DNA from: a virus
Taxonomy: Duplodnaviria > Heunggongvirae > Uroviricota > Caudoviricetes
Reading direction: 5' to 3' (one strand)
Virus record (IMG/VR): IMGVR_UViG_2537561692_000011
Length of the DNA: 5,936 bases
The notes beneath the pieces are model-generated. The model saw only the letters and a program-made list of their open reading frames with translations, made no database searches and was not told where the DNA came from. A program made the translations under genes and the position numbers. Numbering within the stretch: position 1 is the stretch's first letter; every line of letters begins with the position of its first letter. Positions 1,785 to 5,936 of the stretch are shown piece by piece.

Positions 1785-5200
<3,416 letters not shown>

Positions 5201-5222
5201 TCGTCATGCTCCATAAACGATA

Positions 5223-5242
5223 AAACCGCCCGGAGGCGGTTT
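5223..5242 (-). other. Intergenic GC-rich hairpin between I and J
   Basis: Perfect inverted repeat aaaccgcc (5223-5230) / ggcggttt (5235-5242) with 4-nt loop cgga, in the 58-nt I-J spacer. On the minus-strand transcript it is followed by UUUUAUCGUUUAU and then the J RBS (GGAG). Possibly an attenuating or stabilising structure; function unknown. Confidence 0.3.
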
Positions 5243-5260
5243 CACATAAAACATTTTGCA

Positions 5261-5902
5261 TCAGCGACCAATCACCACAACCTGACCACCTCCCCTTCGT
5301 CTGCCGTGCTGATCTCCTGAGAAACCACCGTGACCCCACGCGCATTTCACCGTACAGAACGGCAGAACATTGCCCTGGGCAACCATGTTATCCAGTGAGG
5401 AGAAATAGGTGTTCTGTTTGCCGTTATCTGTACTTGCTGCCGTGGGCGTCCTGGCTTTCGGTGCCAGCATCTGCGCCACCCGCCCAGGATCATACTGGCC
5501 CCTGCCGCATACATGCCCGATACAGCCGCGGCACCCAGCCAGCCCACAGGGTTCCACCATGCCACCGCAATCACGCCGCCCCCAGCACCACCTGAAAACA
5601 CCGCCACTTTTAGCTCCCGCCAGACGCGGCACGATATGGATCACGGCACCATTTGCCAGCGGCTCATTAAGACGGGCAGACAATTCGGTTTCACCTGCAT
5701 CACGCCCGGCAATGCGTACCTGATACCAGCCGTCGCTCAGTTTCTGACGAAACGCCGGGATCTGCATGGCCAGCGCCCGGATGGCTTCGGCCCCCGTTTT
5801 CACACGAAGGTCGATGCGGCGGCCAAATCGTTGCAAATCCCCGTAAAGGCAGATGCGTGCCATGCCCGGTGACGCCAGAGGGAGTGTGTGCGTCGCTGCC
5901 AT
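5261..5902 (-). CDS. I: Tail tip assembly protein I (lambda gpI homologue); full-length ORF is open but contains two internally compensated out-of-frame blocks, so it may be a pseudogene
   Basis: ATG at 5902..5900, TGA at 5263..5261, 213 codons. N-terminus MAATHTLPLASPGMARICLYGDLQRFGRRIDLRVKTGAEAIRALA...GAVIHIVPR.AGAKSGGVF and C-terminus ...GGQVVVIGR match lambda gpI, as does the internal segment VAQMLAPKARTP...TDNGKQNTYFSSLDNMVAQGNVLP. The stretches between (about 5478-5596 and 5292-5359) read as nonsense in this frame (RWCWGRRDCGG..., FCTVKCAWGHGG...). The gpI-like sequence there is found in an alternative frame instead (86-aa ORF 5347..5607: ...VIAVAWWNPVGWLGAAAVSGMYAAGASMILGG...). Confidence 0.75.
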   Translation of the reverse strand: MAATHTLPLASPGMARICLYGDLQRFGRRIDLRVKTGAEAIRALAMQIPAFRQKLSDGWYQVRIAGRDAGETELSARLNEPLANGAVIHIVPRLAGAKSGGVFRWCWGRRDCGGMVEPCGLAGCRGCIGHVCGRGQYDPGRVAQMLAPKARTPTAASTDNGKQNTYFSSLDNMVAQGNVLPFCTVKCAWGHGGFSGDQHGRRRGGGQVVVIGR

Positions 5903-5936
5903 TTGTCGGTATACCTCTCTCGTTTACTCAGTTGTT

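Follow-up and report, generated by a model that had tools for sequence, protein, structure and literature searches.

One described system close to the locus analysed here is gene I of phage lambda, whose product gpI is a tail tip assembly protein with an N-terminal domain of the PF06805 (Lambda_tail_I) family and whose gene stands in the order K-I-J-lom-stf. The locus shares both the domain and the gene order, and differs in that part of the centre and of the C-terminal region of its deposited gpI is read out of frame. Prophage decay is widespread in E. coli, and the pseudogenes of degraded prophages resemble the locus in carrying several frameshifts in lambdoid tail genes; the locus differs from them by an excess of deletions over substitutions, by a bias towards codon position 3 and by an overlap of the deletions with polymorphic sites. 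A further likeness is to the errors made in short-read draft genomes where repeats collapse or paralogues are mixed. Here the shared features are a short contig that starts and ends inside multi-copy tail genes, mixed alleles, errors at the differences between copies and a pattern that varies between sister assemblies. Such errors usually take the form of chimeric substitutions, whereas those described below are mostly deletions, which mimic frameshift decay.

The window, by which we mean the whole stretch of 5,936 nt that was analysed, proved by exact look-up to be identical to the complete contig AQCD01000047.1 of draft assembly GCA_000358695.2, the 2013 draft genome of the enterotoxigenic E. 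coli (ETEC) strain P0305293.8. The origin of the strain is described in PMC4309559. The isolate series to which it belongs was sequenced by Illumina HiSeq2000 paired-end reads at >200x and assembled with Celera Assembler, and populations were found to be clonal in 10/12 patients (PMC4462620). It should be noted that P0305293.8 is unnamed in the main text of that paper and that its method is taken from the general methods given there; the strain was very probably sequenced and assembled like the rest of its series (Illumina, Celera Assembler).

Mapping the annotations of the closest genomes onto the window revealed that its minus strand carries the tail-tip module of a lambdoid prophage, arranged as K, I, J, lom, stf. 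The 3′ end of gene K, encoding a C40 peptidase (5800-5936), runs off one end of the contig and overlaps the start of gene I (5261-5902), which encodes the lambda gpI-type tail tip assembly protein. Gene J, for the tail tip host-specificity protein, occupies positions 1785-5200 and is broken into many ORF fragments. It is followed by an intact lom gene (Ail/Lom outer membrane protein, 1118-1717) and by the 5′ part of the side tail fibre gene stf (1-1053), which runs off the other end of the contig. In the gap between the stop of gene I (5261) and the start of gene J (5200) lies a GC-rich inverted repeat, AAACCGCC-CGGA-GGCGGTTT (5224-5246), followed on the coding minus strand by a short run of T; this terminator-like hairpin is conserved in the reference genome. 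Of the 53 substitutions that separate the window from the closest complete genome, 15 are clustered in lom, at positions 1289-1698, while the flanks of lom (stf and the 3′ end of J) are identical to that genome, which suggests from sequence comparison that lom is a mosaic or recombined allele, or another case of mixed consensus.

Gene I starts with an ATG and is free of stop codons across all 213 codons, as the original prediction had stated, and public annotation treats it as a normal coding sequence, as was also anticipated: its product is ENG75073.1 at NCBI, 'bacteriophage lambda tail assembly I family protein' of Escherichia coli p0305293.8. A PF06805 assignment is likewise precomputed for the gene I of this contig. 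The protein scores 84.3 bits against this family, for a Pfam gathering cut-off of 23.8. The score is the same with or without the scramble described below, because the match spans residues 14-97 only.

When the gene I product was aligned by BLASTP with the intact 215-aa gpI WP_000741576.1, 157/215 residues were identical. Two blocks (residues ~104-141 and ~182-205) showed no identity at all, and the segments around them were near-identical, which is the pattern that had been expected from the letters of the window. A global DNA alignment with NZ_CP025847.1 (ETEC 602354), the closest complete genome, placed six 1-nt deletions in gene I, after positions 5597, 5572, 5479, 5360, 5327 and 5290. The first out-of-frame block (5479-5597 on the minus strand, residues ~104-141) has the deletions after 5597 and 5479 as its bounds and the one after 5572 inside it; the three sites are at codon position 3, at position 1 of a leucine TTG/CTG codon and at position 3. 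The second (5290-5360 on the same strand, residues ~182-205) is bounded by the deletions after 5360 and 5290 and contains the one after 5327. The six sites put forward earlier all lie within a few bases of these aligned positions, although some of the missing bases had been misidentified: the base lost at 5597, for example, belongs to the wobble position of a valine codon (GTA/GTG), and is not a C of TTCCAGG. In total, about 62 residues of the deposited protein are out of frame and, as predicted, out-of-frame sequence takes the place of its Gly/Ala-rich central segment and of a C-terminal segment. Colinearity with the gpI family over the full length, which fails in the deposited protein, was recovered once the six bases were put back; this gave an intact gpI of 215 aa with 4 substitutions relative to WP_000741576.1 (98% identical).

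The frame is regained after every third deletion, and in this sense the deletions do compensate one another, as had been claimed. The compensation is a matter of arithmetic only: such triplets need no selection, because each third 1-nt deletion returns the reading frame. By simulation, the probability that gene I would stay open after six random 1-nt deletions was 0.02, and the alternative frames of its GC-rich centre contain long stop-free runs. We conclude that gene I remained open by chance (~2%), aided by these stop-poor alternative frames, an outcome that is unusual but unselected.

The six deletions in gene I are part of a much wider run that the original prediction had overlooked. Alignment of the window with NZ_CP025847.1 gave 65 deletion events (71 nt) and 1 insertion, all in 2646-5597, a density of ~2.2 deletion events per 100 nt. 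In the same alignment no deletions were seen in 1-2645 or 5598-5936, so that stf, lom, the 3′ end of gene J (1785-2645) and the portion of K on the contig have none. Of these, 59 events and the insertion fall in gene J, within 2646-4952. The frame set by the start codon of gene J meets 44 stops, the first at codon 95, and gene callers divide it into many fragments. Gene I is the sole affected full-length gene that is still open.

The deletions are tied to wobble positions and to naturally polymorphic sites. Among the 31 deletions that could be placed unambiguously within a codon, 27 fell at position 3 and the other 4 at position 1, so that position 2 was never affected (binomial p 9e-10). In a panel of 8 homologues, 53/65 events coincided with sites that vary, compared with 11.3 ± 3.0 for randomly placed events (maximum 22 in 2000 trials); the remaining 12/65 lay off any site that is polymorphic in this small panel. 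Counted by alignment column, 47/70 deletion columns were polymorphic, vs. 292/3050 of the others (Fisher p 5e-30). All six gene I sites are polymorphic in the panel, and at 4236 the deletion of 2 nt falls on a dinucleotide polymorphism, GT/CC. A bias towards codon position 3 is what natural variation between gene copies predicts, and what mutation, selection and sequencing chemistry do not.

The explanation that we favour with considerable confidence, on the evidence of the sequence comparisons, is that the assembly consensus, and not mutation, produced the six deletions of gene I and the 59 deletion events of gene J, as errors made where prophage copies collapsed. We propose that P0305293.8 has several lambdoid prophages, with a divergence of a few percent among their tail genes, and that reads from at least two of these copies were stacked into one contig over gene I and the 5′ region of gene J. 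At columns where the copies differ, the overlap-layout-consensus caller would often have output no base. A mismatch could have been represented as two half-gapped columns, both of which would then be lost; a single-base difference would in this way yield a 1-nt deletion and a double difference a 2-nt deletion. We infer this dropping of bases at mixed columns by the Celera Assembler consensus, and likewise which copies collapsed and how many.

What is seen in close relatives agrees with such a collapse. The module is multi-copy there, with 4-7 separate matching places in each of the related complete ETEC genomes, and the errors lie at inter-copy differences: two copies from one of these genomes, NZ_CP025847.1, were compared and differed at many of the deletion sites. 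Over ~4750-5750 the window alternates between the alleles of the two NZ_CP025847.1 prophage copies. As stand-ins for a second copy, the second prophage of NZ_CP025847.1 and LR883007.1 each account for about half of the deletion columns. Inter-copy divergence measured in 100-nt windows had no clean relation to the affected stretch and did not account for the clean region 1-2645.

A consensus could also fail over a real mixture of DNA at one locus, arising from variation within the culture or from ongoing prophage recombination, in which case the contig would still be artefactual. Such a mixture predicts the same signature, that is, gaps at variable sites together with alternating alleles. We nevertheless consider it very unlikely: in related ETEC genomes the module occupies separate places and the two copies compared differ, so that fixed paralogues are both sufficient and simpler.

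Very unlikely, in our estimation, is an origin of the deletions in random or chemistry-driven read errors that were left unpolished, for instance the homopolymer indels seen with 454, Ion Torrent or nanopore sequencing, repeat collapse playing no part. The bias towards deletions and the rate of ~2 per 100 nt do resemble the error of a raw long-read consensus. Most of the deleted bases, however, lie outside homopolymers, in runs mostly of 1-2, on which ground a homopolymer-type sequencing error was rejected. Chemistry, moreover, cannot pick out wobble or polymorphic positions, and at the >200x Illumina coverage of the series (PMC4462620) random indels would be outvoted.

The original prediction took gene I for a cryptic pseudogene, that is, part of a defective prophage with real single-base deletions in I and J, in which I happened to stay open. 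In its favour, the deposited sequence is indeed scrambled, and prophage decay is common, as mentioned at the outset. As a biological reading we nonetheless find it highly improbable. Decay produces substitutions in numbers far above those of indels, and the stretch 3034-4763 contains ~35 deletion events vs. 2 substitutions relative to the nearest genome. The concentration on codon position 3 and on polymorphic sites is predicted by neither mutation nor selection, and decay leaves the codon-position bias in particular unexplained, because a frameshift is equally damaging at any position of the codon. Natural decay was accordingly rejected on both mutation spectrum and codon position, the deletion excess and the position 3 bias being contrary to a neutral spectrum. 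The deletions are also absent from the best 60 matches in a search of 5,426 complete E. coli genomes; each of these 60 has 1802 nt where the window has 1761 (3000-4760).

The sister isolate P0305293.6 bears on this reading in both directions. Two of the gene I deletions recur in assemblies of sister isolates, as real inherited mutations would also have given; the contig of P0305293.6 has those at 5597 and 5572 in common with the window. Opposite the gaps that the window shows at 5479 and 5360, on the other hand, this contig carries the bases A and G, respectively, against T and T in the reference, and two further wobble sites differ between the sister contig and the window. The sister thus carries only 2/4 of the comparable deletions, which is not identical inheritance if P0305293.6 and P0305293.8 are one clone, as is assumed here. 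The sister assembly has 1-nt deletions of its own in V, H, L, K and I, and these fall at codon position 3 in 27/30 unambiguous cases (p 2e-10). At the start of the same contig (1-260, in the region of gene Z), the first ~250 nt can be aligned with the reference only if several insertions and deletions of more than one base are allowed; a different allele of Z, or a wrong join at the end of the contig, may be the reason.

We give almost no credence to real deletions in which one base was removed per mismatch when diverged prophage copies recombined, for example by faulty processing of a heteroduplex, which if true would have produced a series of 1-nt deletions at precisely the inter-copy differences.

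With collapsed prophage copies as the preferred explanation, the scramble of gene I is very probably neither a real feature of the strain nor a decayed gene. Its biological importance is small, since the real gene I of the strain is most likely intact and normal. The consequences lie in the databases: the artefact has given rise to an open, annotated and deposited 'gpI family protein', ENG75073.1, in which the out-of-frame residues are nonsense, and it has shattered gene J in a manner that resembles prophage decay. The presence of the same signature in the sister assembly means that it may extend through this series of ETEC drafts, and counts of pseudogenes and of prophage integrity made from these drafts would, if that is so, be inflated. 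The combined test of codon position 3 and polymorphic sites offers a quick way of separating such artefacts from true frameshift decay without recourse to reads.

A few sequences met in the course of these comparisons deserve mention in their own right. When the scrambled block was searched against 5.8 billion proteins, the sole match was an ORF called off frame on a short contig of no relation, a weak negative result in that the known representative P0002 was missed as well. The off-frame match lies on a 1464-nt Logan contig from SRR30309744, which carries a partial upstream gene, then cas2 (PF09827) and then the ORF in question. The ORF spans 1222-1443 of the contig, and its second half consists of gpI-gene sequence in the +2 frame (CGLAGCRGCIGHVCGRGQYDPG); a chimeric unitig is one possible source, phage DNA lying beside a CRISPR leader another.

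Two gpI fragments encoded on contigs of 5.0 and 5.3 Mb, P0005 and P0007, leave the frame where the window does, after GGVF/GGLF, and continue with RLCWGR...; each has a frameshift or error that arose independently at the GTA-TTT-CAG site or close to it. Lastly, NZ_LR883007.1, a circular sequence of 46,243 bp deposited as 'plasmid 2' of the ETEC isolate L5_E1779, contains a lambdoid tail module with frameshifts annotated in every one of the genes stf, lom, J, K and tape measure; it could be a long-read contig with many errors, derived from a prophage that is excised or plasmid-like.
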